The notes under the pieces: generated by a model
Seen by the model: the letters and a program-made list of their open reading frames with translations, nothing else
What the model was told of the DNA's origin: nothing
The model's database searches: none
Source of the DNA: Pseudomonadota bacterium
GTDB lineage: Bacteria; Desulfobacterota; Binatia; Binatales; Binataceae
Direction of reading: 5' to 3'
DNA length: 64,000 nt
Assembly (NCBI GenBank): GCA_021324455.1
Contig: JAJPJA010000039.1
Span: 35,594-99,593, forward strand
Program-made: the position numbers and the translations under genes
Part shown: one piece after another, positions 7,444-43,198 of the stretch
How positions within the stretch are numbered: position 1 is the first letter of the stretch
Layout: the number at the start of each line of letters is the position of its first letter

Positions 7444-8607
7444 ATGCCCGCCGTAACACCGGAACACGAAGAAATCCGCCGCTCGGTTCGGGAGTTCGTC
7501 GAGCATGAAGTGGTGCCGATCGCCAACGACCTCGACCGCCAGGAAGCGCAGATCCCCGAGCCCATCATCCAGAAGATGGCCGAACTGGGCTATTTCGGCA
7601 TCATCTTTCCCCCCGAAGAGGGCGGAATGGGTCTGGATTACGTCGCCATGGCGATCGTGACCGAGGAACTTTCCCGCGGATGGCTTTCGGTGGGATCGGT
7701 GATGACCCGCAACCTCATCACCGGCAGCCTCATCCACAACAACGGCACGCCCGAGCAGAAGAAAAATTTCATGCCGCGAATTGCGCGCGGCGAGGTGATG
7801 ACGGCGGCGGCCTTCACCGAGCCCGATACCGGTTCCGATACCGCCTCGCTCAAGCTGCGCGCGGTCAAGCATGGCGACGGCTACCTGCTCAAAGGCTCCA
7901 AGATGTGGTGCACGTTCGCCAACCGCGCCAACATCCTGACCGTGATGACGCGCACCGACCCCGATGTCTCGAAAAAGCATCGCGGGCTGTCGCTGATGCT
8001 GTTGGAGAAGACGCCGGGCGACGATTTCGCGCCGCCGCATCTGACCGGATCGCGGATTCCGACTATCGGCTATCACGGCATGAACAGCTTCGCGCTGTCG
8101 TTCGACGACGCGTTCGTGCCGGCCGCCAACCTGATCGGCGGCAAGGAAGGTCAGGGCTTTTACCAGCTCATGAACACCTACGAGGCGGCGCGCATCCAGA
8201 CCGCGGCGCGCGGCGTCGGCGTGGCGCAGGCGGCGTACGAATGCGCGGTGAAATACGCCAAAGAGCGGACCCAGTTCGGCGTGCCGATCGGCAACCATCA
8301 GGTGATCCGCCACAAGCTGGCGCACATGGCGGTGGAGATCGAAGCGGCGCGCCAGCTCGCGTATTTCGCGGCGTCGCAGAAAGACACCGGCAAGCGATGC
8401 GATTACGAGGCCGGGTTGGCCAAGGTGTTTGCGGCCGAGATGGCCGAGCGGGTCACGCGCGAGGCGATGCAGATCCACGGCGGCTACGGCTATTCGATGG
8501 AGTTCAACGCGCAGCGCTTCTGGCGCGACGCGCGCGTGCTGTCGATTTTCGAGGGCACCAGCGAAATCCAGCTCGAAGTAATCGGGCGCCGGATCATGGA
8601 GCAGTAA
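7444..8607 (+). CDS. acyl-CoA dehydrogenase
   Basis: Full-length ACAD fold (387 aa). The C-terminal signature YGYSMEFNAQRFWRDARVLSIFEGTSEIQ is present. An AGGAG RBS lies 11 nt upstream, and the gene starts 7 nt after the upstream stop. Confidence 0.9.
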   Translation: MPAVTPEHEEIRRSVREFVEHEVVPIANDLDRQEAQIPEPIIQKMAELGYFGIIFPPEEGGMGLDYVAMAIVTEELSRGWLSVGSVMTRNLITGSLIHNNGTPEQKKNFMPRIARGEVMTAAAFTEPDTGSDTASLKLRAVKHGDGYLLKGSKMWCTFANRANILTVMTRTDPDVSKKHRGLSLMLLEKTPGDDFAPPHLTGSRIPTIGYHGMNSFALSFDDAFVPAANLIGGKEGQGFYQLMNTYEAARIQTAARGVGVAQAAYECAVKYAKERTQFGVPIGNHQVIRHKLAHMAVEIEAARQLAYFAASQKDTGKRCDYEAGLAKVFAAEMAERVTREAMQIHGGYGYSMEFNAQRFWRDARVLSIFEGTSEIQLEVIGRRIMEQ

Positions 8608-8611
8608 GCCG

Positions 8612-9097
8612 ATGAGCATCACCTCCGACGGCAGCTACTTCGAGGATTTCACCGTGGGCGATACGCTGGTACATCAGCGCGGCCGCACCATCACGGAAAC
8701 AGACAATCACATGTTCACCTCGCTGGTGATGAACACCGCGCAGCTGCATTTCAACCAGCACCTGGTGGACCGCGAGCCGGATACCTATTTCAGCGGGCGG
8801 CGCGTGGTTTACGGCGGCGTGGTGCTGGCGTTCGTGGTGGGTTTGGCGTCGGAGGATACCAGCGAGAACGCGATCGCCGAGCTGGAGATGGACAACGGGC
8901 GGCATACCAATCCGGTGTTTCACGGCGACACCATTTACGCCGAATCCACCGTGCTGGAAAAACGCGATTCGCATCGGCCCGACGCCGGCATCGTCAAGTT
9001 CAAGCTGATTGGCAAAAGGCCCGACGGCACCGTGGTGGTGGAAATCGAGCGCTCCGTGCTGATCAAGCGCAAATCCTACTTTCTCAAAAATTCCTGA
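8612..9097 (+). CDS. MaoC-like dehydratase, second hot-dog protein
   Basis: Paralogous single MaoC domain (FEDFTVGDTLVHQRGRTITETDNHMFTSLVMNTAQLHFN). It starts 5 nt after the ACAD stop. Confidence 0.8.
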   Translation: MSITSDGSYFEDFTVGDTLVHQRGRTITETDNHMFTSLVMNTAQLHFNQHLVDREPDTYFSGRRVVYGGVVLAFVVGLASEDTSENAIAELEMDNGRHTNPVFHGDTIYAESTVLEKRDSHRPDAGIVKFKLIGKRPDGTVVVEIERSVLIKRKSYFLKNS

Positions 9098-12430: not shown

Positions 12431-12688
12431 TCAATTCTTCTTCATCGCCGGATCGTCGGAGGACACGCATTTCGCCCAAACGCTGCCGGCCGGAGCATTC
12501 GAACCGACACCGGTTGCAATCGCGACGATTTGTTTGCGCGTGGCTTCGCAATCGTCCGCACTCTCGTACGGACCCGACTGCTTCCATTGATTGAGCGGGA
12601 CGTTGACCTCAATCTTGCCGTTGGTTTTCGGCGCGACCATCAGGTACCAGGCGGCCAGAGCGAGCGCGGCGGTATGCCATCGTTTCAT
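12431..12688 (-). CDS. small secreted protein (85 aa)
   Basis: Clean signal peptide MKRWHTAALALAAWYLMVAP followed by a mature region with 2 Cys. Local GC content is lower than the surroundings. It overlaps only the implausible N-terminal extension of the + strand hydrolase ORF. Confidence 0.4.
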   Translation of the reverse strand: MKRWHTAALALAAWYLMVAPKTNGKIEVNVPLNQWKQSGPYESADDCEATRKQIVAIATGVGSNAPAGSVWAKCVSSDDPAMKKN

Positions 12689-16299: not shown

Positions 16300-17634
16300 C
16301 TATTGCATGATCTGCGCGAGCCCCGAGGGGAACGCCAGGGTCTGCGCGTTCCAGTATTTCTGCGGCGCGAACTTGTTCGCCGTGAGTTCAGCGTAGATCT
16401 CGCTGGTGCTCATGTGCGCATTCTGCAGATCGATCATCACTTCGTTGAAGCTGCCCGGCACCACCGCCTTCTCATGATCGTTGATCGGAATGGGGGCGAT
16501 CAGGGCATAGTCGGTCTTCCACAGATGATTCTGCACGTCGTAGATGTCGACGTTGAAGGGCTGCCAGGTCTCCTTATCCACGTAGAAGACCTTTTCCTGG
16601 TAGCAGTAGCCCTTCAGTTCCGAGAGCGGGGTCAACACGATCACTTCGGTGTCGCGCAGTTCCCAGTTGCCCTCAACCGGCTTGGGCCACGACGGCATCG
16701 ACGACGCCGCCAGATGATACGAATCGTCGCGGAAGCGGGCGACCGGGTCCATGTGCATCATCGCCAGGATCTTGTGCTCGCCCAGGTACTGCACCCTGAA
16801 GTTGGGCCATTGCAGGTTGAAGCCAAGGCCATTATCGTCCTGCACCCAGTCGGTGCCCAGGATCGGCGAGCAGCGCGCCGCCGACGACAACCGCAGCGAA
16901 CGTCTGAGCGAGGGCAGGAAGACGTAGATTTCCTGCACGCGCTGCGGGTCGCTGAACACCTGCGCCAATTGCGTCGTGTACTTTACCTGCTCGGGCTGGA
17001 AGTCGAAGAAGCGCGACACGATCTGCACGCCGTTGGCGTAGGGCAGGGTCTTGGGCATGTCGGGCTCGCTCAGGTTCGACAGCCGCCAGGTATTGATGTC
17101 GCCCTTGGTCAGCGAAACGCTGTGGAACCGGTCGATGGTATGCGAGTTGGTCAGGTAGTGGATGAGAAAAGGATGGTAGCGCTCCCTGACGTTGTAGCCG
17201 ACCTTGGTGCCTTTTTCCGGATCCGACGGATCGGGGAAAGGCACGCCCGCGGTGTAGCCGTCGATGGTGTAGCCGCCGCTCTCGAGCTTGCGCAGTTTGA
17301 CCTGCCCCGAATACTGTTCGGTGTCCTTGCGGTATTGATCGGGCAGCGGAATAGGAATGGCCGGCGCGACCGTGATGGCGTAGTCCGGCTCGGATCCGAT
17401 TTTCCAGAAATACTGGCCGCTGTAGAGCGCCTGCAGCCCGATCGGCAGAAAGCGCCGATATTGCTGCCAGTTCTGCGTGGTGATTTTGGTCCCCGGCGGG
17501 ATGCTTTCGTTGACCCCGGCCAGCGACCGGTAGGCCTGGTCGCTGTAGTTGAACTGAGCGGCGGCTGCCCCGCACAAGCCGGCCATCAGCATAACCCCGG
17601 CCGCGGCCGCCGCTGCTGAACGCCAAAATCTCAT
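16300..17634 (-). CDS. DUF1329 family secreted protein (LolA-like fold)
   Basis: 444 aa with signal peptide MRFWRSAAAAAAGVMLMAGLCGAAAAQ. The composition and length are typical of DUF1329 outer-membrane-associated proteins. No DUF1302 partner is adjacent. Confidence 0.65.
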   Translation of the reverse strand: MRFWRSAAAAAAGVMLMAGLCGAAAAQFNYSDQAYRSLAGVNESIPPGTKITTQNWQQYRRFLPIGLQALYSGQYFWKIGSEPDYAITVAPAIPIPLPDQYRKDTEQYSGQVKLRKLESGGYTIDGYTAGVPFPDPSDPEKGTKVGYNVRERYHPFLIHYLTNSHTIDRFHSVSLTKGDINTWRLSNLSEPDMPKTLPYANGVQIVSRFFDFQPEQVKYTTQLAQVFSDPQRVQEIYVFLPSLRRSLRLSSAARCSPILGTDWVQDDNGLGFNLQWPNFRVQYLGEHKILAMMHMDPVARFRDDSYHLAASSMPSWPKPVEGNWELRDTEVIVLTPLSELKGYCYQEKVFYVDKETWQPFNVDIYDVQNHLWKTDYALIAPIPINDHEKAVVPGSFNEVMIDLQNAHMSTSEIYAELTANKFAPQKYWNAQTLAFPSGLAQIMQ

Positions 17635-30188: not shown

Positions 30189-31304
30189 TCAGCTCAGGTT
30201 CATGTTGAACAATCGATCGCAGTTATGGCTGATGATCTTGTTCTTAATCGGCTCGGGCACGTCGCTGAAGATGTCGGCGATCACTTCGCGCGACTTGGGC
30301 CAGGTGGTCGCGCTATGCGGATAATCGGACGCCCACATGTAGTTGTCCTCGCCGAAAAATCGCGTGACCCGCGGTCCGATCGGATCGATCTCGAAGGTAA
30401 AGAACACCTGCCGCCGCATGTACTCCGACGGCAGATGCGCCAGCTTGTTGTCCGCCATCGGAGCGAACTTCTTGAACCGCCGGTCGAGCTGCCAGACAAA
30501 ATACGGCACCCATCCCGCGCCCAATTCGACCGAAACCACCTTCAAATTGGGATAACGCTCGAGCACGCCGCCGAACACCAGGCTGCACAGCGTTTCCTGG
30601 ATCTCGTGGACGAAATGCAGACTGGCAAAGGTGAGGAATTCGGGACTGCCGTCGATTTTGGCCGCGCGCTTTTTGTCCTTGGCGGTGATCTCATGCATCG
30701 TGATCACCATCCCATGGTCCTGGGCGGCGGCGAAGAAGGGATCATAGATGCGGCTGTGGTAGGGACGATCGGCGGGCGGACCCGACCAGACCATCGCGCC
30801 TTTCAGCCCCAATTTGGCTGCGCGCTCGACTTCCTTGACCCCCTCGGCGACATTTTCCAGTGAGATCAGTGCGACCGGAAACAGGCGCTTGGGCGCATGC
30901 GAGGCGAACTCCGCCATCCAATCGTTGTAGATGCGGAAGCAGGCCAGCTGCAGTTCGGCGTCATCCAAACCGAAGAGCGAAAAGCCCAGCGACGGGTAGA
31001 GCACTTCGGCGGCGACGCCGTCGGTCTCCATGTCCCTGACCCGCGCCTGGGGGTCCCAGGCGCCGGGCCGCGCCGCCTCATACCCCTTGCTCATCATCTC
31101 CTTCAGTTCCTTGCCCTCGGCGCCCAGGGCATAAAAGGCCGCCACCTGCATCGGGGGAACGCCCGGAGCTTCGAACATCGGTCCCGCGCCGGGCTTGTCG
31201 ACCACGCGCGGCGCGCGGTCGCGAAAGCGCTTATCCAGACGTTCTTCCCAAAGCCTGGGAGGCTCGACGATATGACCGTCAGAGGAAATGATTGGCACGC
31301 TCAT
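30189..31304 (-). CDS. amidohydrolase-2 (PF04909, ACMSD/LigW-like) family protein
   Basis: N-terminal ISSDGHIVEP and a C-terminal WASDYPH metal-binding motif. 371 aa. Confidence 0.8.
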   Translation of the reverse strand: MSVPIISSDGHIVEPPRLWEERLDKRFRDRAPRVVDKPGAGPMFEAPGVPPMQVAAFYALGAEGKELKEMMSKGYEAARPGAWDPQARVRDMETDGVAAEVLYPSLGFSLFGLDDAELQLACFRIYNDWMAEFASHAPKRLFPVALISLENVAEGVKEVERAAKLGLKGAMVWSGPPADRPYHSRIYDPFFAAAQDHGMVITMHEITAKDKKRAAKIDGSPEFLTFASLHFVHEIQETLCSLVFGGVLERYPNLKVVSVELGAGWVPYFVWQLDRRFKKFAPMADNKLAHLPSEYMRRQVFFTFEIDPIGPRVTRFFGEDNYMWASDYPHSATTWPKSREVIADIFSDVPEPIKNKIISHNCDRLFNMNLS

Positions 31305-32792: not shown

Positions 32793-33218
32793 CTAACGCA
32801 TCATCTGAAAGAACTCGACCGGAACTCCGTCCGGATCCTCGACATAGAAGCTGCGGAACCTGGGCACCACTTCCTCGATGTCGGAAATGATCTTCGCCCA
32901 CGGCATCGATTGCACTTCGCGGAATTTCGCCTCGACATCTTCAACCGCGAACGACATGTGCGGGCTGCCGGCATTGTTGTGATGAATATGCTGAGGCGCG
33001 CCGCCGCCGGCGGTGTATTCGAGCAACTGCAGCTTGAACCCACCCGCGCGCACGTAAGCTCCCTTGATGGCGGCGGGCGGGTTTCTGGTCAGCCGGGCAA
33101 ACCCGCCGTTTTGCAGTTCGAACGTGGCTTCCACCGTCATCCCCACCACTTCGCGATAAAATCTGAGCGAGGCATCCAGGTTGGTGACGGTCAGACCGAC
33201 ATGATCGAGCGCAGCCAT
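32793..33218 (-). CDS. VOC family (glyoxalase / bleomycin-resistance / dioxygenase fold) protein
   Basis: LDHVGLTVTNLDASLRFYREVVGM is the classic VOC N-terminus. The ATG at 33218 is preceded by AGGAGG. The ORF-track N-terminal extension was rejected. Confidence 0.75.
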   Translation of the reverse strand: MAALDHVGLTVTNLDASLRFYREVVGMTVEATFELQNGGFARLTRNPPAAIKGAYVRAGGFKLQLLEYTAGGGAPQHIHHNNAGSPHMSFAVEDVEAKFREVQSMPWAKIISDIEEVVPRFRSFYVEDPDGVPVEFFQMMR

Positions 33219-33325: not shown

Positions 33326-34135
33326 GTGGACGCAATCGAAAAGGCCGCCAGGCGCGCGGCGCGGGCCGCCGGCGCCGTTCATATCGCTCGATTCGGCAAG
33401 ACCACATTCAAGGGCAAAAGCAGCTTTTTGGACCTGGTGACCGAGGCCGACCAGGAAGCGGAGGCGGCGGTGGTCGGGATTCTGCATCGCGCCTTCCCCG
33501 ATCACGCGATTCTCTCCGAGGAAGGCGGCGGTATCGACCAGCCCAGTCAACATCGATGGATCATCGATCCGCTCGACGGCACCACCAATTTCGCCCACGC
33601 CTATCCCCATTGCTGCGTCTCCATCGGCTATGAACGGCGCGGACGGCTGGAATTGGGCGTCATTTTGGACGCGCTGCGCGGTGAGCTGTTCCTCGCGCGC
33701 CGGGGCCGGGGCGCCACGCTCAACGGCAAGCCAATCGCCGTCAGCCGTGCCGCCACGCTCGACACCGCTTTGCTGTGCACCGGCTTTCCCTACGATCGCT
33801 CCGCGCGCCGGCGCTTTTACCTGACCTTCTGGGAGGCGATGATGACCCGCGTGCACGGCGTGCGCCGCACCGGCAGCGCCGCGCTGGATCTGGCCTGGGT
33901 GGCGTGCGGCAGGATGGACGGGTTCTGGGAGTTCGGGCTCAAGCCGTGGGACGTCGCGGCGGGCACGCTGATAGTGCAGGAGGCCGGCGGCAGAGTCACC
34001 AATATGGACGGAACCAGATTGAGCCTGACCGCGGGACGAATAGCGGCGACCAATCGCCGCCTGCACAAGCAGTTGCTGGACGTCATCGCGGAAAACTTCG
34101 CGGAGGCCGAACGCCGCGAAGCTTCCGGGATGTAG
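33326..34135 (+). CDS. inositol monophosphatase family protein (SuhB/CysQ/HisN-like)
   Basis: Motifs DPLDGTTNFAH and WDVAAG, GTG start. Confidence 0.85.
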   Translation: MDAIEKAARRAARAAGAVHIARFGKTTFKGKSSFLDLVTEADQEAEAAVVGILHRAFPDHAILSEEGGGIDQPSQHRWIIDPLDGTTNFAHAYPHCCVSIGYERRGRLELGVILDALRGELFLARRGRGATLNGKPIAVSRAATLDTALLCTGFPYDRSARRRFYLTFWEAMMTRVHGVRRTGSAALDLAWVACGRMDGFWEFGLKPWDVAAGTLIVQEAGGRVTNMDGTRLSLTAGRIAATNRRLHKQLLDVIAENFAEAERREASGM

Positions 34136-34209
34136 CGGCCCCCGCCAGCGTTTCTGCCCGCAAAGCGGCGGGGGAAACTCAAGCGGCAATCGATCCGGCG
34201 GCCGCTCAG

Positions 34210-35679
34210 TCAGCGCGGCTGGCTGTGCGCCAAAACCGATCGCGCCGCCGCCTCCACCGCGGTGCCTTTGAAAAAATCCGGATTCGCTTCAGCCTTGGCG
34301 CGCACCGGGTTGATTAGGACGAAATCGCGGAAATCCTCCTCGCTGATGCATCCGCGCTCCACCATCTCCCACGCCTCCGACGCGGCCAGGCGCATGTCGG
34401 GCAGATCGAAATGGCCGAGATCGGAGCCGTAAATCGCGCCCAGCCGCGCTGCGAAAGGATTTTTGCGCGGGTCGAAGGCAACCGCGGTCATGCGGTCGTC
34501 GCCTTCGCATCCGAAAAAGAAATTCGGCACGAAACGGTCGCGGATGTCTTCGCGCGTGCGCACCGCGCAGCGCGCGAACTCGTCGAGGTCGGCGGGATCC
34601 TGCACCACGCCCCACAAAAGCTGCGAGCGGTCGTCCTGGCGCGCCGCGATTTCGGCGCGGTAATCGCTTCCGTACTCCCTGAACAGACGGCGCATCAGAT
34701 CCTCGTCCAGAGCGCGGGGGTCGTAGTTTGACACCATTGCGGCGTTATGTTTTTCCCAATGACCGGCGAGATCGCACAGCAGGCCCGCAGCCCAGGCCGC
34801 GCCGCCTTCGAGAAAAGCGAAACGGATTTGAGGAAAGCGGCGCGTCACTCCGCCCAAAAACAGCGACTTGCAAATCGCCTCAGCCGACGCGGCGAAGTGT
34901 CCGATATGGTTGTAGACGAAATTGGAGATGGAGTTGCGCATCCCCAGGCCCATCGTGCCGCTATGGAAGGTCGGCGCCACCTTCAGCTCAACGCATCTGG
35001 CCCACACCGGATCGTAGTCGTATTCACTGTCCAGCGCGTAGGTGTCGAACCAATGCGCATAGCGGGCGGCGTCGGGACTTTTCCTGGCCGCGGCGGGAAT
35101 CGTTCGCACCACGAAAGCCGGCATCAGCACGACCTTCAATCCGAGCACGCGGACCGCGTAATCCAGTTCCTCCAGAGCTTCGGCCGGCGTATGCATCGGA
35201 ATCACCGCGGCCGGAGTCAGACGGTCGGCGTACGCGCGGAAAATGTCGGCATGCAGCCTGTTCAGCGCGCGGCATGAGGCACGGCGCAACTCCTCATCGC
35301 CCAGGCTGGGCAGCACGATGCCGAAACTCGGATAGATGATACTGAAGTCGATACCCATTTCGGGCAGCCGCTGATGCAGCAGCCGGGGCAGCGAACTGGT
35401 CGCCCGGTCCAGCGTGTTGCGCGTCGGATGCGCCGCCCACAGCGGACGCGCCAGCCGGGCGTCGCGGCGCTCCTGCGGAGTCATCCGGTACCATCGAAAC
35501 GCGATCGGGCTGTTGGGCATCGACTTGAGCCGATCCAGCATCCGGCTGCCGCCCACTTCGCGCAGGTAATCGAACAAAGCCGGTTCGAATTCAGCGGTAT
35601 GGCCGTCGGAATCGATTATCGGATGATTGAGACGGGCGCGAATCGCGGCTGATTTGGAAATCGTTGCTGAGGTCGGCAT
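34210..35679 (-). CDS. amidohydrolase-2-like protein, long form (489 aa), paralog A
   Basis: N-terminal IIDSDGHTAEFEP, internal HSGTMGLG, C-terminal GSDLGHFD. Start placed at the ATG at 35679 (MPTSATISKSAAIRARL). Confidence 0.7.
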   Translation of the reverse strand: MPTSATISKSAAIRARLNHPIIDSDGHTAEFEPALFDYLREVGGSRMLDRLKSMPNSPIAFRWYRMTPQERRDARLARPLWAAHPTRNTLDRATSSLPRLLHQRLPEMGIDFSIIYPSFGIVLPSLGDEELRRASCRALNRLHADIFRAYADRLTPAAVIPMHTPAEALEELDYAVRVLGLKVVLMPAFVVRTIPAAARKSPDAARYAHWFDTYALDSEYDYDPVWARCVELKVAPTFHSGTMGLGMRNSISNFVYNHIGHFAASAEAICKSLFLGGVTRRFPQIRFAFLEGGAAWAAGLLCDLAGHWEKHNAAMVSNYDPRALDEDLMRRLFREYGSDYRAEIAARQDDRSQLLWGVVQDPADLDEFARCAVRTREDIRDRFVPNFFFGCEGDDRMTAVAFDPRKNPFAARLGAIYGSDLGHFDLPDMRLAASEAWEMVERGCISEEDFRDFVLINPVRAKAEANPDFFKGTAVEAAARSVLAHSQPR

Positions 35680-35753
35680 CGCAATCTCACCTGCGGTTTG
35701 TGCACGGTACAAAGCATCACGGGCCGGCGCCGGCCGTACCCGCGCAAGCAGCG

Positions 35754-36158
35754 TCAATGGCCGCGGAATTTTCTCACCTGCAGCAGGATGTCCATAGTTC
35801 GAGTGCCGCCCGATTGCGACAGGCGCGGGTCGGAATCGGAGATGCATTGGATGAAGACATTGGGACTGGTGAAGCCGAACCGGGACCATCCGCCGCGCGC
35901 AATGACGCTGTGCTTGAGCCAGTCCTGAACCATCCCGGTGCGATCCGATTCGCATTCGGAGCGGCTGGCGAAGTCACCGCGCGCGGTGAAGCGGACCGGC
36001 CCCGCCATCGAGCCTTTGACCATGCTGCTGGCGGCTTTGGGCTGGCTGATGACGTTGACGTCCGCCGCCATCAGGTACCAGCTCGCGGCGTGGCTGTTTT
36101 GCGCAAGGACAAGCAGCGCCGCGAGCGCGAATTGGATATGGAGGAGGTTGTTCTTCAC
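35754..36158 (-). CDS. small secreted protein (134 aa)
   Basis: GTG start with a GGAGGTGGAG RBS. Signal peptide MKNNLLHIQFALAALLVLAQNSHAA. It sits co-directionally between the two long amidohydrolase paralogs. Confidence 0.45.
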   Translation of the reverse strand: MKNNLLHIQFALAALLVLAQNSHAASWYLMAADVNVISQPKAASSMVKGSMAGPVRFTARGDFASRSECESDRTGMVQDWLKHSVIARGGWSRFGFTSPNVFIQCISDSDPRLSQSGGTRTMDILLQVRKFRGH

Positions 36159-36364
36159 TTGAAATTTTTCTCCACCTCCGGCAGAGAAACTCTCGATTCC
36201 GGGGCTGAGACGGCATCCGCCCGGTGAGGCCGGCGTCCATGACGGTCGTCAACCCGGGCCGCGGCGGGAGAAGGCCGGCCGAATCGCCCGCTCCACTGCC
36301 GGAAGGCTTTGCGGTTGAGAAAACCGCCCTCCCGGGCGAATCGGCCAAATCACAATCCTCCGGC

Positions 36365-37789
36365 TCAACCGCCGGCCATCAGGTCGCTCGCCTGTTTCTC
36401 CACTACGGTGCCATTGAAGAAATCCGGATTCATCCCGGCGAACAGCCTGACCGGGTTGGTGAAAGTCAGGTCGCACAGCTGCTCTTCGGTGAGCACGCCG
36501 TGTTCGACCAGTTCCCAGGATTCCTCCAGCACTTCGGTCATGTCCTTGACGTCGAAATGTCCGATGTCGGAGCCCAGGATCGCGTTGAGCCGGGCTCCGA
36601 ACGGATTGACGCGGCTGTTGAACGCCGCCGCATTCATCGGGTCCTCGGCTTCGCATCCGAAATAGAAGTTGGGCACGAACAGGTCGCGGATATCCTCGGC
36701 GCGATTGATTGCGCAGCGCCAGAAGTCGTCCAGCTGCGGCGGCGGCTCGACATGCTTGCTGATAACCGGGTTGTGCCGCACGGTTTGCCTGATCAATTCG
36801 TCGCCGTAGCGCTCGGCCAGATTGCGAAACAGATTTTCGTCCAGATTGGCCGGATCGACCCGATCCAGCACGTTGATGTTGCGCGTGTTCCAATGCCGGA
36901 TCAGGTCGCTGTACAGGCTGCAGGCCCATCCGGCGCCGCCTTCCAGGAAGGCGAATTTCAGCCTGGGAAAGCGCCGCGTCACGCCGCCCAGAAACAGCGC
37001 CTTGCACAGGGTGTCGCCGGCGGTCGCGAAGTGGCCGATATGGTTGTACACCCAGTTCGACGTCGATGCGCGAAAGCCCAGGCCCTGCGTTGAGTTGTGG
37101 AAGGTGGGAATCAGCCCCAGCTCAATGCATTTGGCCCATACCGGATCGTAATCGTAGTCGCTGTCCAACCCCAGCGGATCGCGCCAGATGCGGTCCGCTT
37201 TTCCCTCGCCCGCCGGAACATGGCGGTTGACCAGCCCGGCCAGCATCACCACCTTCAGCCCCAATGACTTGACGTGCTCGAGCTCCTCGATCGCCTCCTG
37301 CGGCGTATGCACCGGAACTCCGGCAACCGGCGTCAATCGATCGGAATAATCGCGGAACAACTCGGCGGCATATTCGTTGAGCGCGCGCGTGCCGCCGCGG
37401 CGCAGCTCCTCGTCGCGCATGAACGGCACCATCGTCATCACCGAGGTCGGAAACAGCACGCAGAAATCCAGTCCCATCTCGGGCAGCCGCTCATACAGCA
37501 GTTTGGGCAGCATCGCGGTGGCCCGGTCCAGCGTGTTTTTGGTAGGAAACGGCCACCATGCCGGCTGGGCGAGCTTGTTTTTCTGGCGCTGTTCGAAACT
37601 ACTGCCGGCGTTGGGGAGGGTGACCCGCGTGATGCGCTCGTAGCGCGCCGCGGACTGATCTCCCACCACGCGCCGCACGTATTCCATCACGGCGGGTTCG
37701 TACTCGATCCAATGCCCGTCCGAGTCGATCACGGGATGGCTCAAACGGGCATGAATAGCGGCAGACTTGCTGGTTGCGGTGGCGGCCAT
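36365..37789 (-). CDS. amidohydrolase-2-like protein, long form (474 aa), paralog B
   Basis: Collinear with paralog A along its whole length (MAATATSKSAAIHARLSHPVIDSDGHWIEYEP ... GSDIGHFD). Confidence 0.75.
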   Translation of the reverse strand: MAATATSKSAAIHARLSHPVIDSDGHWIEYEPAVMEYVRRVVGDQSAARYERITRVTLPNAGSSFEQRQKNKLAQPAWWPFPTKNTLDRATAMLPKLLYERLPEMGLDFCVLFPTSVMTMVPFMRDEELRRGGTRALNEYAAELFRDYSDRLTPVAGVPVHTPQEAIEELEHVKSLGLKVVMLAGLVNRHVPAGEGKADRIWRDPLGLDSDYDYDPVWAKCIELGLIPTFHNSTQGLGFRASTSNWVYNHIGHFATAGDTLCKALFLGGVTRRFPRLKFAFLEGGAGWACSLYSDLIRHWNTRNINVLDRVDPANLDENLFRNLAERYGDELIRQTVRHNPVISKHVEPPPQLDDFWRCAINRAEDIRDLFVPNFYFGCEAEDPMNAAAFNSRVNPFGARLNAILGSDIGHFDVKDMTEVLEESWELVEHGVLTEEQLCDLTFTNPVRLFAGMNPDFFNGTVVEKQASDLMAGG

Positions 37790-37836
37790 TTTGCTCTCTC
37801 TCCTCTCAGCCCGGCCTTCTACAATCTGTAAGGATT

Positions 37837-40253
37837 TTATTGCGTGCCGGCGTAAACCCGGGCCGCGCCCTGCGCCTGCCGGCGCATCGCGGCCGCGCCC
37901 TTGTCATTCTTCAATACGAACACAACCTTATCCACAACGCCGTTAAAACGGAAAGGACACCGGTAGCTTTCGTCAACCGGCGTTCCGGTGTCGATTCCGA
38001 CGTCGAATGTATCATGATCGGAAAAGACGAACGGCACGGTGCGATCGATCGCGCCTTCGCCGGTCTTGTGGCCGTTGATGAAGACCGCGCCGCGTCCTGT
38101 GTTGTCGCCGGTTCTGGTGAACTCGAACCGCAGCGTCGATTTGCCCGGGCGCAGCCGCTCGCGCGAGGCGACCCTGTAGCGCTCATCGCCCAGGAAATTG
38201 TAAACGAAGGTGGGACGACCGCCGCGGACGAAAAACGCGTAGCCGCCAAAGCGCCCGCCGTCGGTCACGATCATCCCGTCGCCGCCGCCGGGCGGGACCT
38301 CCACCTCGGCGGTGATGCTGTAGGAGCGGTTCTTTACGTCGGGTGCGAGGATTTCCGGCACCCGGAAAGTCCCGGCGGTGTAGGTGTACTCGGCGCGCGG
38401 CGCCGGCAGCCACGGCTTGGCCGGCGCGATGCGGCCCAGCCGATCGTCGAGCGGCAGGACGTTGTTGCGCTGCGCCTCCTTCAGCCACAGCGCCTCCAGT
38501 TCCTTCACCTTGTCCGGATATTGCGCCGACAGGTCATGGATCTCGGCGAAGTCGTCATCGACGTGATACAGCTCCCAATGGTCGTTATCGAACGGCACCG
38601 AACCGGCGGAATCCCACGGCGGACGTCCGTGAAAAACGACCGCTTTCCAGCCGTCGCGCCAGATGCCGCGATTGCCCACCATTTCATAATACTGCATATG
38701 GCGCGCGGCGGGCGCCGACGGATCGCCTAAAGTTCGGGCAAAGCTGATACCGTCCAGCGGCCGCTGCGGCACACCGCCGATTACGGAGGGCGGTTTGATG
38801 CCGGCGACCTCCAGAATCGTCGGCGCAATATCGGTAACGTGGCAGAACTGATGGCGGATCGCCCCCGCATCCTTTATCAATCTGGGATAGTAAACGATCA
38901 ACGGATCGCGCACGCCGCCGTAGTGCACGGTCTGCTTGTAATACTTCAGCGGCGTGTTGCTGGCTGGGCCCATCCCACCGGATAATGGTTGTAGGTCAGG
39001 GGAGAGCCGAATTCGCCGATCCTTGCCACGTCGCGCTCAAGCGGCTCGGGCACGCGGTTGAAGATGCGGAATTCGTTGCTGGTGCCGATCAGACCCCCTT
39101 CCGCGCTGGCGCCGTTGTCCGACATCACGATTATCAGCGTGTTGTCCATCTGGCCCATCGCGGAGAGCGCCGCCACGATGCGCCCGAACTGGTAGTCGGC
39201 ATGCTCCAGGTAGCCGGCGTACACCTCCATCTCGCGCGCGAACAGCCGCCGCTCGGACGGCGTCAGCGCCGCCCACGGCTTGACGCCCGGCGCCAGCGGG
39301 GCAAGCTCGGTGTTGGCCGGTACGATGCCTATTTCCTTCTGGCGGGTGAGTATCTCCTTGCGGATCTGATCCCAGCCTTTGTCGAAACGTCCCTTGTAAT
39401 GATCGATGAACTCGCGGGGCGCCTGATGCGGCGCGTGGCAGGCGGCGGGGGCGAAATAGAGCAGGAAGGGCCGCGCGGGTTCGATCGCTTTAAGCCGCCG
39501 CATCTGCTCGATCGCCTGGTCCGCGAGGATCGCGGTCAGATGATCCTGCGCCCGATTCCATTGCGCCGGCCAATCGCGCAGTATCGCGCTGGTATTTTCG
39601 AACAGCTCCGGATTCCACTGGCTGGCCTCGCCGCCCTGAAAGCCGAAGAAATAGTCGAAACCCCAGATGCCGGTGGGCCAGTACTTGAACGGTCCCGCCG
39701 CCGAAGTGAACTCGAGCGGCGTGTTGTGCCATTTGCCGATCGCGTAGGTCGCGTAGCCGTTCAGCTTCAGGATCGTGGGCAGCGTGCCGGCGTCGTCGGG
39801 CAGCAGGCCGTCGTAGCCCGGATAGCCGGTGGCGGCCTCGATGATGGTGCCGAAGCCGACCGCGTGATGGTTGCGGCCGGTGAGCAGCGCCGCGCGCGTG
39901 GGCGAGCATAGCGCCGTGGTGGTGAAATTGTTGTAACGCAAGCCCCGCGCCGCAATCCGATCGATATTGGGAGTGTGAATCGGACCGCCATAGCTGCCCA
40001 GATTGGCGAAGCCCACGTCATCGAGCAGAAAAATCACGACATTGGGGGCGCCCGGGCGGGCTGTGGGCAGCGCCGGCCACGCGGGTTGCGACTGCTTGTA
40101 GGTGAAGCCGATAACGCCGTTAAATTTGCCGTCGCTGTAGGTTCTGACGGCAACAATCGCCGCTGCCGCAACCGGCACCATCAGCCCGGCCATCGCCAGC
40201 CACAATACCAGGTGCAGTCGCGGATTGGGCCGGAAAGAATCGGGAGCTTTCAT
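37837..40253 (-). pseudogene. arylsulfatase (large AtsA-type), interrupted by a frameshift
   Basis: The N-terminal ORF at 38946-40253 has a signal peptide and the sulfatase signature CSPTRAALLTGRNHH. The C-terminal ORF at 37837-38973 continues the sulfatase fold in another frame. The two ORFs overlap by 28 nt. The expected junction VGWAxxSNTPLKYYKQ is broken as VGWAQPATRR* versus MGPASNTPLKYYKQ, which is consistent with a 1-nt loss near 38958-38963. Confidence 0.7.
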
Positions 40254-40388: not shown

Positions 40389-42059
40389 TCAGGTCGGACG
40401 CAGAACGCGGCCGGGCAGAACTCCACGCGGCTGACCGTGATCGTACAGCACCTGGCCGTTGACCACGGTGTAATGCACGCCGGTCGCCGCCACCGTCAGG
40501 CGCATCCCGCCGCCCGGCAGGTCGAAGGCGGTTCGCGGACCTTTCTCGCCCACCGTGTCGTAGTCGAAAATAGCGATATCCGCGGCCATGCCCGGCGCCA
40601 GCCGTCCGCGGTCGCCGAGCCCGAAAAAGTCCGCCGGCTCCGATGTCATGCGCTTGACCGCGCGCTCCAGCGAGAACAGCTTTTCCTCGCGCACCCAATG
40701 CCCCACCATGTAGGTGCAGTAGGCGGCGCCGCAGAACATATCGACGTGCGCGCCGCCGTCGCCCAAACCGACCAACGTGCGATCGTCGGCCAGCAGCCCG
40801 CTCAGGTAGCGCTCGAAATCCTCGAAGATGCAGAACCTGGTCTGCAGCTTGTCCGCGATGGCGAGGTCCAAAAACGCGTCCACCGGCGCCTTGCCCGTTT
40901 CGCCCGCCACCTGGAGAATGCCTTTGCCCTCGAAATGGCGCAGCGCGGGATCGCTGACCTCGGCCACCGACATCGCCTTCCAGTTGCCGGAAAAGAAAAC
41001 TTCGGGTTTCTCGAGCCCCTGGGCAAAGGCCGCGCGGAACGCCGGATCGGACAGGATTTCGATCTGCTTCTCCAGCGGCTGATGGAATACCTGTTTCCAT
41101 TCGGCGCGCGGCGCGAACACGAACGGGTCGCGCAGCGCGAACAGGATCTTGTTGCCTTTGCTGACGATCTGGGGAATGCCTCCGCGCCGGATCAGCGGTT
41201 CGGCTTTCTTCAGCGTCGCCTCATGCGCCGTCAGATCGGTGATGCGCGGCAACAGCGCCGTCCAGGTCACCGGGCGTCCGCTATGCTCCAGCAGCAGGTC
41301 GACCAGTTCGTATTCCTGATCCGACAGCAGCCCCAAATCCTGCGTCAGCGCGATTTCGACCACGCCCCTGCCGCTGTGCTTCAGCACGTTAGCGTAGGCG
41401 GCGAGTTCGTCGCGGTCGGCCAGGCGGCAGGCGAGCGGGCGGCCCTTGTAGCCCAGATGCTGGCGGAAGACGGTGGTGGAAAAACCCAATGCGCCGGCGC
41501 CGATCGCTTCGCGCAGCAGCCCCGCGATGCGCTCGCGCTCATCGGGACGCGCCGCGCGCTGGCTCGATTCCTCGCCCAGCACGTAATGGCGCAGCGGCGT
41601 GAGCGGCACCAGAAAGCCGACGTTGATGCCCAGGCCGCGGTTTTGCGCCGCCTGCATGTACTGCGGAAAGCTTTCCCAATCCCAGGTGATACCGCGGGTC
41701 AGGACGTCAAACGGGATGCCTTCGACCGTGACCAGATCGCGCGTGACCATCTCATGCGCCTGCGCGCGGCAGGGCGCGATCCCCACGCCGCAGTTGCCGA
41801 TCACGACGCTGGTCACGCCATGCTCCGATGAGCAGGTGAGCAGGGGATCCCAGCAGATTTGCGCGTCGTAATGCGTATGCGGGTCGATAAAGCCGGGCGC
41901 CGCGATCAGGCCGGCGGCGTCGATCTCCTCGCGCGCTTTGCCCCCGAGGTTGCCGAGCGCGGCAATCCTGCCGCCGGCGACGCCGATATCGCCCTTAAAA
42001 CCGGGCGCTCCGGTGCCGTCAACGATCGTGGCTTTCCTGATGATCAGGTCGTAGTCCAT
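40389..42059 (-). CDS. N-acyl-D-amino-acid deacylase (D-aminoacylase) family amidohydrolase
   Basis: MDYDLIIRKATIVDGTGAPGFKGDIGVAGGRIAALG ... FIDPHTHYD is the typical D-aminoacylase N-terminus. 556 aa from the ATG at 42059; the upstream track extension was rejected. Confidence 0.8.
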   Translation of the reverse strand: MDYDLIIRKATIVDGTGAPGFKGDIGVAGGRIAALGNLGGKAREEIDAAGLIAAPGFIDPHTHYDAQICWDPLLTCSSEHGVTSVVIGNCGVGIAPCRAQAHEMVTRDLVTVEGIPFDVLTRGITWDWESFPQYMQAAQNRGLGINVGFLVPLTPLRHYVLGEESSQRAARPDERERIAGLLREAIGAGALGFSTTVFRQHLGYKGRPLACRLADRDELAAYANVLKHSGRGVVEIALTQDLGLLSDQEYELVDLLLEHSGRPVTWTALLPRITDLTAHEATLKKAEPLIRRGGIPQIVSKGNKILFALRDPFVFAPRAEWKQVFHQPLEKQIEILSDPAFRAAFAQGLEKPEVFFSGNWKAMSVAEVSDPALRHFEGKGILQVAGETGKAPVDAFLDLAIADKLQTRFCIFEDFERYLSGLLADDRTLVGLGDGGAHVDMFCGAAYCTYMVGHWVREEKLFSLERAVKRMTSEPADFFGLGDRGRLAPGMAADIAIFDYDTVGEKGPRTAFDLPGGGMRLTVAATGVHYTVVNGQVLYDHGQPRGVLPGRVLRPT

Positions 42060-42088: not shown

Positions 42089-43198
42089 TTACGGCCGGTA
42101 AAAGGCCAGCGCGCTTTCCGCCATCACGATGCGGCGCATATCGGGTCGCAGCCGCTGTGCAATCTGTTGCGGCGCGCCGGGAAAGAAGCCGTCGGGATGG
42201 GGATAATCGGTGGCCCACAGGATATGCTCGGGTCCCAGGAAATCCGCCGCGAACTGCACCGACGCCTCCACCGGCTCGAATGACACCCAGCATTGACGGC
42301 GGAAGTAGTCGGAGGGCTTCATCCTGATTTCCGGATAGAACAGATGGCTGTCGGAGAAATGGCGGTCCATCCGATCCAGCCACGCCGGCATCCATCCGCC
42401 GCCCGCCTCCAGAAAGCCGAAGCGCAGTTTGGGAAAGCGCTCGCACACGCCGCCCCAGATTACGCACAGCGACGCCAGCATCATTTCCATCGTATGCGAG
42501 ACGATATGCTTGGCGCCGCGATTGGCGAAGCGGTCGGCGCCGATCGCCGGATTGCCGCCCAGTCCCTCATGGATTCCGATCGCGAAATCAAGCTCCTGCG
42601 CCGCGGCCCACAACGGGTCGTAGGCGCGGTCATCCAACTGCCGGTTGTTGTAGCGGTTGGGACGCACGAATCCCGATCGCATCCCCAACTCCTTGCGCGC
42701 AAAGCGCATCTCCTCGATCGCGTATTCCACCGACTGCATCGGCAGCATCGCCACCCCGAACAGCCGGTCCGGGTAGGGACTGCAATAGTCGGCCAGCCAT
42801 CGGTTGTAGGCGCGAAAGCAGGCAGCGGCGAATTTGGGATCTTCCACCGCGCCCATCCACAGGCCCATCGTGGGGTAGAGGAACACCGCGTCGATACCGT
42901 CGAGGTCGAGATCGGCGATGCGCGCGTGCGGATCGAACCCGCCCTTGCGCCCCTCGGCGTACTTCATGTCCTTGACCGTGTCGGCCCCCCCGCGCACCGC
43001 GTCGATCGCGCCCGCGGAGCCGATTCCGTCAAAGCCGGGAAAGGCGCGGCCGATAAACCACATCATCTCCTTGCCGCGCTCATCGATGAAGTATCTCGGC
43101 GCCTGATCGCGGTAAGCGGGATCGATATATCGCTGCCACAGATCGACCGGTTCGAGCACGTGGCCGTCGGAATCGATGACGTTGTAAGTGCGGCCCAT
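42089..43198 (-). CDS. amidohydrolase-2 family protein
   Basis: N-terminal IDSDGHVLEP and C-terminal WATDYPHPD, 369 aa. Paralogous to the gene at 30189-31304. Confidence 0.8.
   Translation of the reverse strand: MGRTYNVIDSDGHVLEPVDLWQRYIDPAYRDQAPRYFIDERGKEMMWFIGRAFPGFDGIGSAGAIDAVRGGADTVKDMKYAEGRKGGFDPHARIADLDLDGIDAVFLYPTMGLWMGAVEDPKFAAACFRAYNRWLADYCSPYPDRLFGVAMLPMQSVEYAIEEMRFARKELGMRSGFVRPNRYNNRQLDDRAYDPLWAAAQELDFAIGIHEGLGGNPAIGADRFANRGAKHIVSHTMEMMLASLCVIWGGVCERFPKLRFGFLEAGGGWMPAWLDRMDRHFSDSHLFYPEIRMKPSDYFRRQCWVSFEPVEASVQFAADFLGPEHILWATDYPHPDGFFPGAPQQIAQRLRPDMRRIVMAESALAFYRP

Follow-up and report, generated by a model that had tools for sequence, protein, structure and literature searches.

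Two long-form PF04909 enzymes with an ARO-like candidate metal-ligand pattern border a conserved gene for a predicted exported protein at the probable junction of two gene blocks

Amidohydrolase-related dinuclear oxygenases (AROs) are defined by an N-terminal D-x-H motif and a C-terminal D-x-P-H-x-[D/E] motif, the latter preceded by at least 200 residues, and a census by this motif counted roughly 17,000 sequences (Liu et al., JACS 2026, PMC13154177); a D-x-G-H-x-D variant is not mentioned in that paper. The ligands of SfbO are three carboxylates and three histidines, and the characterised enzymes of PF04909 are mostly non-redox (JACS 2024, PMC10811679). Our literature search returned no papers on the amidohydrolases of Binatia.

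Here we describe a locus in a 64,000-nt stretch of Binataceae DNA (the whole of which we call the window) in which two long-form PF04909 genes, longA and longB, lie on either side of a gene for a small protein with a predicted signal peptide. The genes needed for the comparison are as follows.
36365..37789, minus strand: longA, a 474-aa long-form PF04909 protein; fourth gene of a conserved cluster
35754..36158, minus strand: the small gene, 134 aa, GTG start; predicted signal peptide at about residues 1–24 (nt 36087–36158)
34210..35679, minus strand: longB, a 489-aa long-form PF04909 protein with its ATG at 35679; part of the adjoining inositol monophosphatase/glyoxalase block
30189–31304: a short PF04909 protein of 371 aa
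We consider it likely that two gene blocks meet here, that longA and longB are ARO-like two-metal enzymes, and that the small protein is exported and has an extracytoplasmic role.

Both long-form proteins score above the gathering threshold of the PF04909 (Amidohydro_2) HMM and have the TIM-barrel fold. A start for longB at 35955, which would give the longest possible ORF, was rejected as an unsupported 5′ extension. The first-pass annotation of this DNA had described the two as collinear paralogs with shared N-termini, about 110 aa longer than the short forms, and it was correct on each count: a full-length alignment of longA and longB has 51% identity (E = 2e-176), the quoted N-termini are right, and the excess over the two short PF04909 proteins of the window is about 105–120 aa. 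A search with longB gave 7,021 matches at E ≤ 1e-20, and the best 120 of these 7,021 are 62–85% identical to it; orthologs of longB at 81–85% identity lie in other gene contexts. On sequence comparison, longA and longB are thus paralogs of long standing within a very large family, one with over 7,000 proteins. Recent tandem duplication is excluded by their mutual identity of 51%, against 62–85% for the relatives of longB, and pseudogene decay by the intact frames and close orthologs of both. A signal or Tat peptide is impossible in either protein because the first barrel strand, which carries the D-x-H motif, starts at residue 21; the earlier impression of an intact, cytoplasmic-type enzyme pair with no export motif therefore stands.

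Both long-form proteins have the N-terminal D-x-H of the ARO definition, within IDSDGH at residues 21–26, inside a strand that AlphaFold places at residues 21–27, and 117 of 120 long forms share DSDGH. The published C-terminal motif is absent from both proteins, which have Gly for Pro at this point (D-I-G-H-F-D at residues 408–413 in longA, D-L-G-H-F-D in longB); the corresponding pattern D-[LIMFA]-G-H-x-D is found in 118 of the 120. The candidate metal ligands of longA are D24, H26, H231, E283, D408 and H411, plus D413, and all seven are invariant across 41 family members. A greedy hhalign run set the long-form IDSDGH opposite the DSDGH of the short ARO, and H231 and E283 align with its H210 and E264; the LEGG segment of the long forms aligns with SEGG of DitZ, where ACMSD has HGG. 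MAFFT, BLASTP and hhalign all failed to align the C-terminal motif of the long forms with that of the short ones, and D408-x-G-H411-x-D413 was equated with the short-form DYPHPD from AlphaFold strand positions. A forced hhalign alignment instead placed DYPHPD opposite residues 340–356, a poorly conserved loop, at near-zero confidence; we rejected it because AlphaFold puts strands 7 and 8 at residues 375–380 and 402–406.

The long forms share with the AROs PtmU3, DitZ, SfbO and AibH2 an invariant D-x-H on strand 1. A His after strand 5 and a Glu, within LEGG, after strand 6 are candidate counterparts of further ARO ligands, and a D-x-x-H-x-D loop after strand 8 would bring the set to three carboxylates and three histidines, as in SfbO. 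Unlike AROs they have D-x-G-H-x-D, and the published motif filter would hence pass them over. They are also longer than AROs by about 105–120 aa, the extra parts being an N-terminal helix, a hairpin after strand 4, a helical insert of about 50 residues before strand 7 and a C-terminal extension, and in sequence they resemble solved AROs only weakly (DitZ, E = 3e-7). From the non-redox members of PF04909 (ACMSD, LigW, the gamma-resorcylate, 2,3-dihydroxybenzoate and salicylate decarboxylases, and LigI/LigJ) they differ in having D-x-H as the N-terminal motif and an additional His and Asp after strand 8, and from ACMSD in having Glu for the His of the HGG segment. Neither hallmark of ACMSD/LigW-type decarboxylases, their own N-terminal metal motif or the His of HGG after strand 6, was seen in the long forms.

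We infer from this pattern that longA and longB retain three carboxylates and three histidines at the two-metal (Fe/Mn) positions of AROs, with Gly replacing the signature Pro, and that they are probably cytoplasmic two-metal enzymes and not hydrolases. They would probably be O2-dependent and most likely have hydrophobic or aromatic catabolites as substrates. A less probable alternative, which nevertheless deserves serious weight, is that the long forms are conventional non-redox hydrolases, hydratases or decarboxylases with one metal or none, and that their likeness to AROs is coincidental. The lack of the published D-x-P-H-x-[D/E] motif and the mostly non-redox record of characterised relatives (PMC10811679) speak for this, as does the finding that no Rieske ferredoxin or other reductase partner is encoded among the neighbours scanned; however, high-potential AROs such as PtmU3 and DitZ usually lack an adjoining Rieske ferredoxin as well. 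The D-x-H motif, the Glu in place of His at the xGG position after strand 6 and the invariance of the whole D, H, H, E, D, H, D set argue for the ARO-like assignment.

On this assignment, thousands of soil-bacterial proteins annotated as ‘amidohydrolases’ have ARO-like candidate ligands for two metals and escape a search with the published motif. If the long forms are AROs, the superfamily lies substantially above its present count, and if they are oxygenases, the capacity to oxidise hydrocarbons, terpenoids and aromatics would have to be predicted anew for Binatia and related uncultured bacteria of soil.

The longA gene and the small gene belong to a set of minus-strand genes (Block 1, from 43198 down to 35754), the upstream members of which are listed here.
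42089..43198, minus strand: first gene, a PF04909 protein of 369 aa that carries the complete ARO signature
40389..42059, minus strand: second gene, a 556-aa PF07969 (Amidohydro_3) enzyme
37837..40253, minus strand: optional third gene, a sulfatase (Pfam) with a CSPTR formylglycine motif
The 369-aa enzyme has both ARO motifs (DSDGH at residues 9–13, DYPHPD at residue 331), matches PtmU3 (E = 1.1e-49) and DitZ (E = 3.7e-31), and has orthologs at 90–92% identity in six related loci (L009, L010, L011, L014, L017 and L018). The PF07969 enzyme resembles D-aminoacylase (E = 1.5e-42) and N-acyl-D-glutamate deacylase, and its gene is found in every Block 1 locus long enough to show it. The sulfatase has an N-terminal hydrophobic anchor; in the window a 1-nt deletion near 38963/38964 (blastn) breaks it in two, its orthologs in L001 and L011 are intact at 806 aa, and it is absent from L010, L014 and the P0007 contig. 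In about eight related loci of soil Binataceae-type bacteria the cluster ends with the small gene. This gene comes next after longA in the window, L001/L009/L017, L011/L018, L010/L014-16, L004 and the P0003 contig, and in the P0007 contig and L019 its immediate 5′ neighbour is the PF07969 gene; on its 3′ side the related loci have a tRNA-Leu, an unrelated ORF or a 304-aa ORF. Block 1 may therefore be read as a conserved catabolic cluster of Binataceae-type bacteria from soil, in the order PtmU3-like ARO-type PF04909 gene, D-aminoacylase-like PF07969 gene, sulfatase (optional), longA (usual) and small gene (always last). All Block 1 loci come from close relatives, with neighbouring genes 83–92% identical, so that too little time since divergence could account for the common gene order.

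The longB gene has different company, and the features on its side of the junction, with the two spacers, are the following.
33326..34135, plus strand: inositol monophosphatase family gene (Pfam), convergent with longB and in the same block
32793..33218, minus strand: glyoxalase/VOC family gene (Pfam), about 141 aa from an internal ATG, in the longB block
36159..36364, minus strand: longA–small spacer, 206 nt, with a terminator-like hairpin (36339–36324) followed by TTTTCTC; carries the GGAGGTGGAG ribosome-binding site
35680..35753, minus strand: small–longB spacer, 74 nt; boundary of the two synteny blocks
In L006, the closest stand-alone relative, the orthologs of longB (83% identity), the inositol monophosphatase (89%, at the same position) and the glyoxalase (84%, a 141-aa gene) form the same neighbourhood. 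Genes on the opposite strand flank the longB orthologs of L006 and L008, and the ortholog in L007 lies 342 nt after a DUF1329 gene; a small gene upstream of longB was found in none of these three loci. Within the 74-nt spacer, an alignment shows TTGACGC...GCAGGTGAGA-GCGATG to be common to the window and L006, and this upstream similarity ends at about the stop codon of the small gene. Block 2 would thus start about 75 nt upstream of longB, a stand-alone gene in relatives, and the longA–small–longB region would be a junction of two independently conserved minus-strand blocks with no three-gene module.

This bears on the first-pass annotation, which took the enzyme pair bracketing a secreted-protein gene for one operon of odd composition and proposed conservation of the three-gene order as a check. 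The order did not recur: a longB-type gene follows the small gene in none of the about eight related loci, and the three longB orthologs stand alone. A single functional operon of these three genes, with the secreted protein acting for both paralogous enzymes, is in our view very unlikely. The genes are collinear with short gaps (206 and 74 nt), and no strong terminator was found between the small gene and longB; against this, of all loci examined the window alone has the order, longB shares its upstream region with a locus in which the small gene is missing, and the predictions put the enzymes and the small protein in different cell compartments. The order seen in the window could be functional in this single lineage. 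A mixture of cytoplasmic and exported products is not odd in itself, as the same cluster already encodes the anchored sulfatase, and if the odd-looking operon is a meeting of two blocks, no special mechanism is needed.

The hairpin of the small–longB spacer is no more stable than shuffled sequence (fold z-score +0.8), and the absence of a convincing terminator there makes read-through into longB possible. The longA–small spacer has a fold z-score of only −1.8, which gives no evidence for structured RNA, and in relatives the spacer before the small gene measures 57–183 nt and contains different hairpins. Rfam had no match in 33500–38500, a sigma-70 promoter scan found no site inside the longA–small–longB region, and a terminator scan counted no more terminator-like sites than in shuffled sequence.

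The small gene itself, proposed at first pass as a 134-aa same-strand ORF with a signal peptide and ribosome-binding site, is well supported. Its Shine-Dalgarno-like GGAGGTGGAG ends 11 nt 5′ of the GTG, which is slightly long, and long spurious ORFs are frequent in GC-rich genomes; a chance open frame in GC-rich DNA is nonetheless scarcely credible because of the conservation data. The gene has homologs at 50–67% identity, 45 homolog clusters exist, dN/dS is 0.20–0.45 with dS of 0.5–1.2, and the GC3 of 0.81 matches that of real genes nearby. The GTG-AAG-AA start is conserved among relatives, the two cysteines (Cys69 and Cys105) are conserved, all or almost all family members have Ala at both −3 and −1 relative to the cleavage site, and the AlphaFold model is confident (pLDDT 87.7). 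The outcome that would have told against the first-pass annotation, a non-conserved small ORF between decaying paralogs, is the reverse of what is found.

The N-terminus (MKNN-LLHIQFALAALLVLAQN-SHA, followed by AS) starts K-rich, continues with a hydrophobic core and closes with a cleavage-type S-H-A site, and on inspection agrees with export by Sec and signal peptidase I (basic N-region, hydrophobic core, small residues at −3 and −1), with no lipobox Cys and no twin-arginine motif. The mature protein (110 aa, 12.1 kDa, pI 9.9) begins near W-Y-L-M-A-A-D and has a DPRL motif and a basic tail. Its model is an alpha/beta fold with one long helix against an antiparallel sheet, for which fold comparison found no match and none hinting at ligand binding, the weakest of resemblances being to ClpS-like or ferredoxin-like alpha/beta sandwiches. 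The protein matched no family in Pfam or NCBIfam and nothing in a PDB sequence-profile search, and Pfam gave no match at E ≤ 1 for any of the 44 family members. Apparently, then, this is a conserved, Sec-exported, uncharacterised family, judging from its sequences. Its member here would be a basic 12-kDa alpha/beta protein, probably disulfide-stabilised, that acts outside the cytoplasm; as such it cannot be a subunit of longA or longB. If it has any part in Block 1, this would lie outside the cytoplasm, for example in capturing or handling substrate together with the exported sulfatase. The substrate-binding or chaperone role suggested at first pass is a possible, putative one. A sulfatase-specific chaperone role is excluded, as the small gene is present where the sulfatase is absent.

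Whether the small protein is a dedicated accessory of Block 1, capturing, escorting or presenting a substrate outside the cytoplasm or aiding the sulfatase, with its terminal position under selection, is doubtful. The gene adjoins the cluster in about eight loci, it stays directly after the PF07969 gene in the two loci that lack both sulfatase and longA, and the cluster does encode an exported enzyme. On the other side, L010, L014 and the P0007 contig have the small gene without the sulfatase, the spacers 5′ of this gene hold hairpins or a terminator-like site, and no fold match points to ligand binding. Homologs also occur in unrelated contexts: one about 50% identical in L013, in a mobile-element-like region without amidohydrolases, one 28% identical in L012, and a second paralog in the window at 12431–12688.

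More tentatively, the long-form PF04909 family, which has over 7,000 sequences and is frequent in soil bacteria of the Binataceae type, may be an unrecognised D-x-G-H-x-D branch of the dinuclear AROs. The exported WYLM proteins with two cysteines may, separately, be a family of small proteins with a new fold, one branch of which would have been taken up by an ARO-containing catabolic cluster as its component outside the cytoplasm. The small protein resembles other small Sec-exported two-cysteine proteins without a curated family (mature alpha/beta proteins of about 110 aa with a signal peptide and a Cys pair), and it defines an exported family with a confidently predicted fold and no structural relatives that is tractable for work on structure and localisation.

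The first-pass annotation described two amidohydrolase paralogs bracketing a secreted small protein, and the ORF limits and the paralog alignment confirm three collinear minus-strand ORFs that lie exactly inside 34210-37789 of the window (GC content of around 63%):

36365-37789, minus strand: longA, long-form PF04909 paralog, 474 aa
35754-36158, minus strand: small ORF, 134 aa, GTG start
34210-35679, minus strand: longB, long-form PF04909 paralog, 489 aa, ATG at 35679

The longB start is backed by homolog lengths of 484-495 aa; the maximal ORF, extending up to 35955 and overlapping the small ORF, was rejected as spurious. PF04909 is the sole Pfam match of each long form, and the window carries four PF04909 genes, the other two being short (369 and 371 aa). 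LongA and longB can be aligned over their full lengths (51% identity, E = 2e-176), whereas longA orthologs are 83-85% identical to longA, and longB has 7,021 matches at E ≤ 1e-20, the best 120 of which are 62-85% identical. As each is closer to its own relatives than to the other, these comparisons identify longA and longB as old paralogs of a large family. Their mutual identity rules out a recent tandem duplication, and the same comparison with orthologs rules out decaying copies, disposing of the earlier concern that the pair might be diverging pseudogenes.

Related loci were gathered through exact-protein look-ups and pattern scans and were mapped by tblastn; they derive from soil metagenomes and from metagenome-assembled genomes of Candidatus Binataceae. 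The relatives share one recurring cluster, often with a divergent methyltransferase gene upstream, and the small gene is always its end.

Gene order at related loci and contigs
L001/L009/L017 and L011/L018: PF04909 (369 aa), PF07969 (556 aa), sulfatase (806 aa), longA, small gene
L010, L014-16: PF04909 (369 aa), PF07969, longA, small gene (sulfatase absent)
P0007 contig, L019: PF07969, small gene (sulfatase and longA absent)
P0003 contig: sulfatase, 231-aa ORF, longA, small gene
L004: longA (83% identical), small gene

The 3′ neighbour of the small gene is a tRNA-Leu gene, an unrelated ORF or a 304-aa ORF, and never a longB-type gene among the related loci mapped; the three-gene arrangement is thus not conserved. 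Genes for tRNAs are frequent sites of rearrangement or integration, which may be why this neighbour varies; in one Binataceae relative (L001), tRNA-Leu(TAA) at 8558-8643 directly follows the small gene and closes the cluster. Orthologs of longB (81-85% identical; L006, L007 and L008) occur in other contexts, flanked on both sides by opposite-strand genes in L006 and L008 and 342 nt past a DUF1329 gene in L007. A DUF1329/LolA-like gene also occurs in the window (16300-17634, minus strand), perhaps by coincidence. In L006, genes for an inositol monophosphatase (89% identical to that of the window) and a glyoxalase (84%) directly follow longB; around 75 nt upstream of the longB ATG are common to the window and L006, and the similarity stops at about the stop codon of the small gene. 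Because longB orthologs lie in other contexts and cluster relatives always end at the small gene, sequence comparison places two abutting synteny blocks in the window, and the bracketing operon becomes an accident of gene order where they meet. The cluster sulfatase of the window (37837-40253, minus strand) is split near 38963/38964 into two overlapping ORFs of 435 and 378 aa by a 1-nt deletion (G missing in GCxCAG-GCCAGC) when compared with L009 and L011, whose 806-aa orthologs are intact; the split marks either a genuine pseudogene or a fault in the assembly.

The small ORF is, judging by its conservation, a real gene, as the annotation had proposed. Its product begins MKNNLLHIQFALAALLVLAQNSHA|ASWYLMAAD (the bar marks the predicted cleavage site), the 3′ end of GGAGGTGGAG lies 11 nt before the GTG, and its GC3 of 0.81 is usual for genes of the window. 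Seven homologs are 51-67% identical, and five orthologous coding sequences share a GTG-AAG-AA start and give dN/dS values of 0.20-0.45 at dS 0.5-1.2. Across the family (34 representatives at 50% clustering; 45 clusters at 90%), Ala at -3 and -1 of the cleavage site, a W-Y-L-M mature start, C69, C105, R73, W80, G95 and a D-P-x-L motif past the second cysteine are conserved. The mature protein has 110 aa (12.1 kDa, pI 9.9), and a confident AlphaFold2 model (44 sequences; pLDDT 87.7, pTM 0.73) packs an antiparallel sheet (strands 27-32, 51-63, 103-107, 114-116 and 119-127) against a long helix (66-82). No match came from sequence searches against Pfam, NCBIfam or the PDB, no family member collected has a Pfam domain, and all relatives with a source name are labelled 'hypothetical protein'. 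Computationally, this appears to be an orphan exported two-cysteine family with a confidently predicted yet unmatched fold.

A link between the small protein and the cluster is favoured by their adjacency in around eight loci, two of them without the middle genes, and by the N-terminal hydrophobic anchor and formylglycine motif of the cluster sulfatase. However, these loci all belong to close relatives, the small gene is retained in loci that lack the sulfatase, and the spacers ahead of it are long or hairpin-rich. That of the window has 206 nt and a terminator-like hairpin (36339-36324); those of L004 (about 930-1100), L010 and L014 carry two REP-like hairpins, CTCTCCCAC...GTGGGAGAGGGTTAGGGTGAGGGTGA and CCCCTCTCCCATTCCTCTATGGGAGAGGGCCAGGGAGAGGGTGA, an element absent from the window's longA-small spacer. 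A 28%-identical homolog lies in an unrelated setting (L012), and one of around 50% identity (L013, 8001-8426) lies amid resolvase, DUF3854/VapE-like primase and integrase (rve) genes, a setting that suggests that some family members may travel on mobile elements. The window also holds a distant, shorter paralog of 85 aa (12431-12688, minus strand; hhalign probability 97%, E = 1.2e-10), MKRWHTAALALAAWYLMVAP...DDCEATRK...AKCVSSDDPAMKKN, between a PMT_2 glycosyltransferase gene and another ORF, with no amidohydrolase nearby; no Shine-Dalgarno sequence is obvious ahead of it, and its stop codon is followed by a hairpin. As an apparently exported product, the small protein cannot pair stoichiometrically with enzymes inside the cytoplasm, so that any role in the cluster would be extracytoplasmic.

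Among solved proteins, DitZ (E = 3e-7) and PtmU3, both amidohydrolase-related dinuclear oxygenases (AROs), are closest to the long forms in sequence; the 369-aa first enzyme of the cluster matches PtmU3 at E = 1e-49 and DitZ at E = 4e-31. Two motifs define AROs (PMC13154177): D-x-H in strand 1, towards the N terminus, and a D-x-P-H-x-[D/E] loop towards the C terminus. In the ARO SfbO three carboxylates and three histidines hold two metals (PMC10811679). Both motifs are present in the 369-aa enzyme (DSDGH and DYPHPD). DSDGH is kept in 117 of 120 long-form homologs, and the C-terminal loop reads D-[LIMFA]-G-H-x-D in 118 of 120 (D408-I-G-H411-F-D413 in longA, D-L-G-H-F-D in longB). D24, H26, H231, E283, D408, H411 and D413 show no variation across 41 sequences, and the long-form LEGG segment aligns to SEGG of DitZ, where ACMSD has HGG. 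The AlphaFold2 model of longA (pLDDT 83.6, pTM 0.86) has eight barrel strands, with D408 immediately past strand 8 (402-406). No alignment tool matched the long- and short-form C-terminal loops, the proposed equivalence of which draws on this model and on residue invariance. We infer two-metal binding of the ARO kind in the long forms, with Gly replacing the signature Pro, and computation points to a large family of long-form PF04909 proteins whose ligand set resembles that of AROs. The Gly variant is not mentioned in the ARO study (PMC13154177), and the published motif filter would overlook such proteins. Relative to the short forms, the long forms have 105-120 additional residues in four parts: an N-terminal helix, a hairpin past strand 4, a helical insert of around 50 residues ahead of strand 7 and a C-terminal extension. 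No reductase partner gene was found among the neighbour genes scanned; AROs of the PtmU3/DitZ type also usually lack a neighbouring one (PMC13154177).

Surrounding genes include housekeeping (aconitase, MutS and cell-wall amidase) and catabolic functions (P450, SDR, aldo-keto reductase and ThDP enzyme). A longB relative, P0078 (487 aa, 64% identical), is encoded in a 5.1-Mb circular genome beside glyoxalase, HpaB-like, FAA-hydrolase and BphC-like genes, neighbours that fit a role in the catabolism of aromatic or hydrophobic compounds. In a single long-read assembly, three contigs (L021-L023), one being the 5.1-Mb circle, carry the P0078 gene in a near-identical 17-kb neighbourhood that also includes MetE-like, metallo-beta-lactamase, acyl-CoA dehydrogenase and short PF04909 genes. 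The 371-aa PF04909 gene of the window (30189-31304, minus strand) encodes SSDGH and DYPHSA, with Ala for the last acidic ARO residue, and is divergent from the adjoining cytochrome P450 gene (31438-32751, plus strand).
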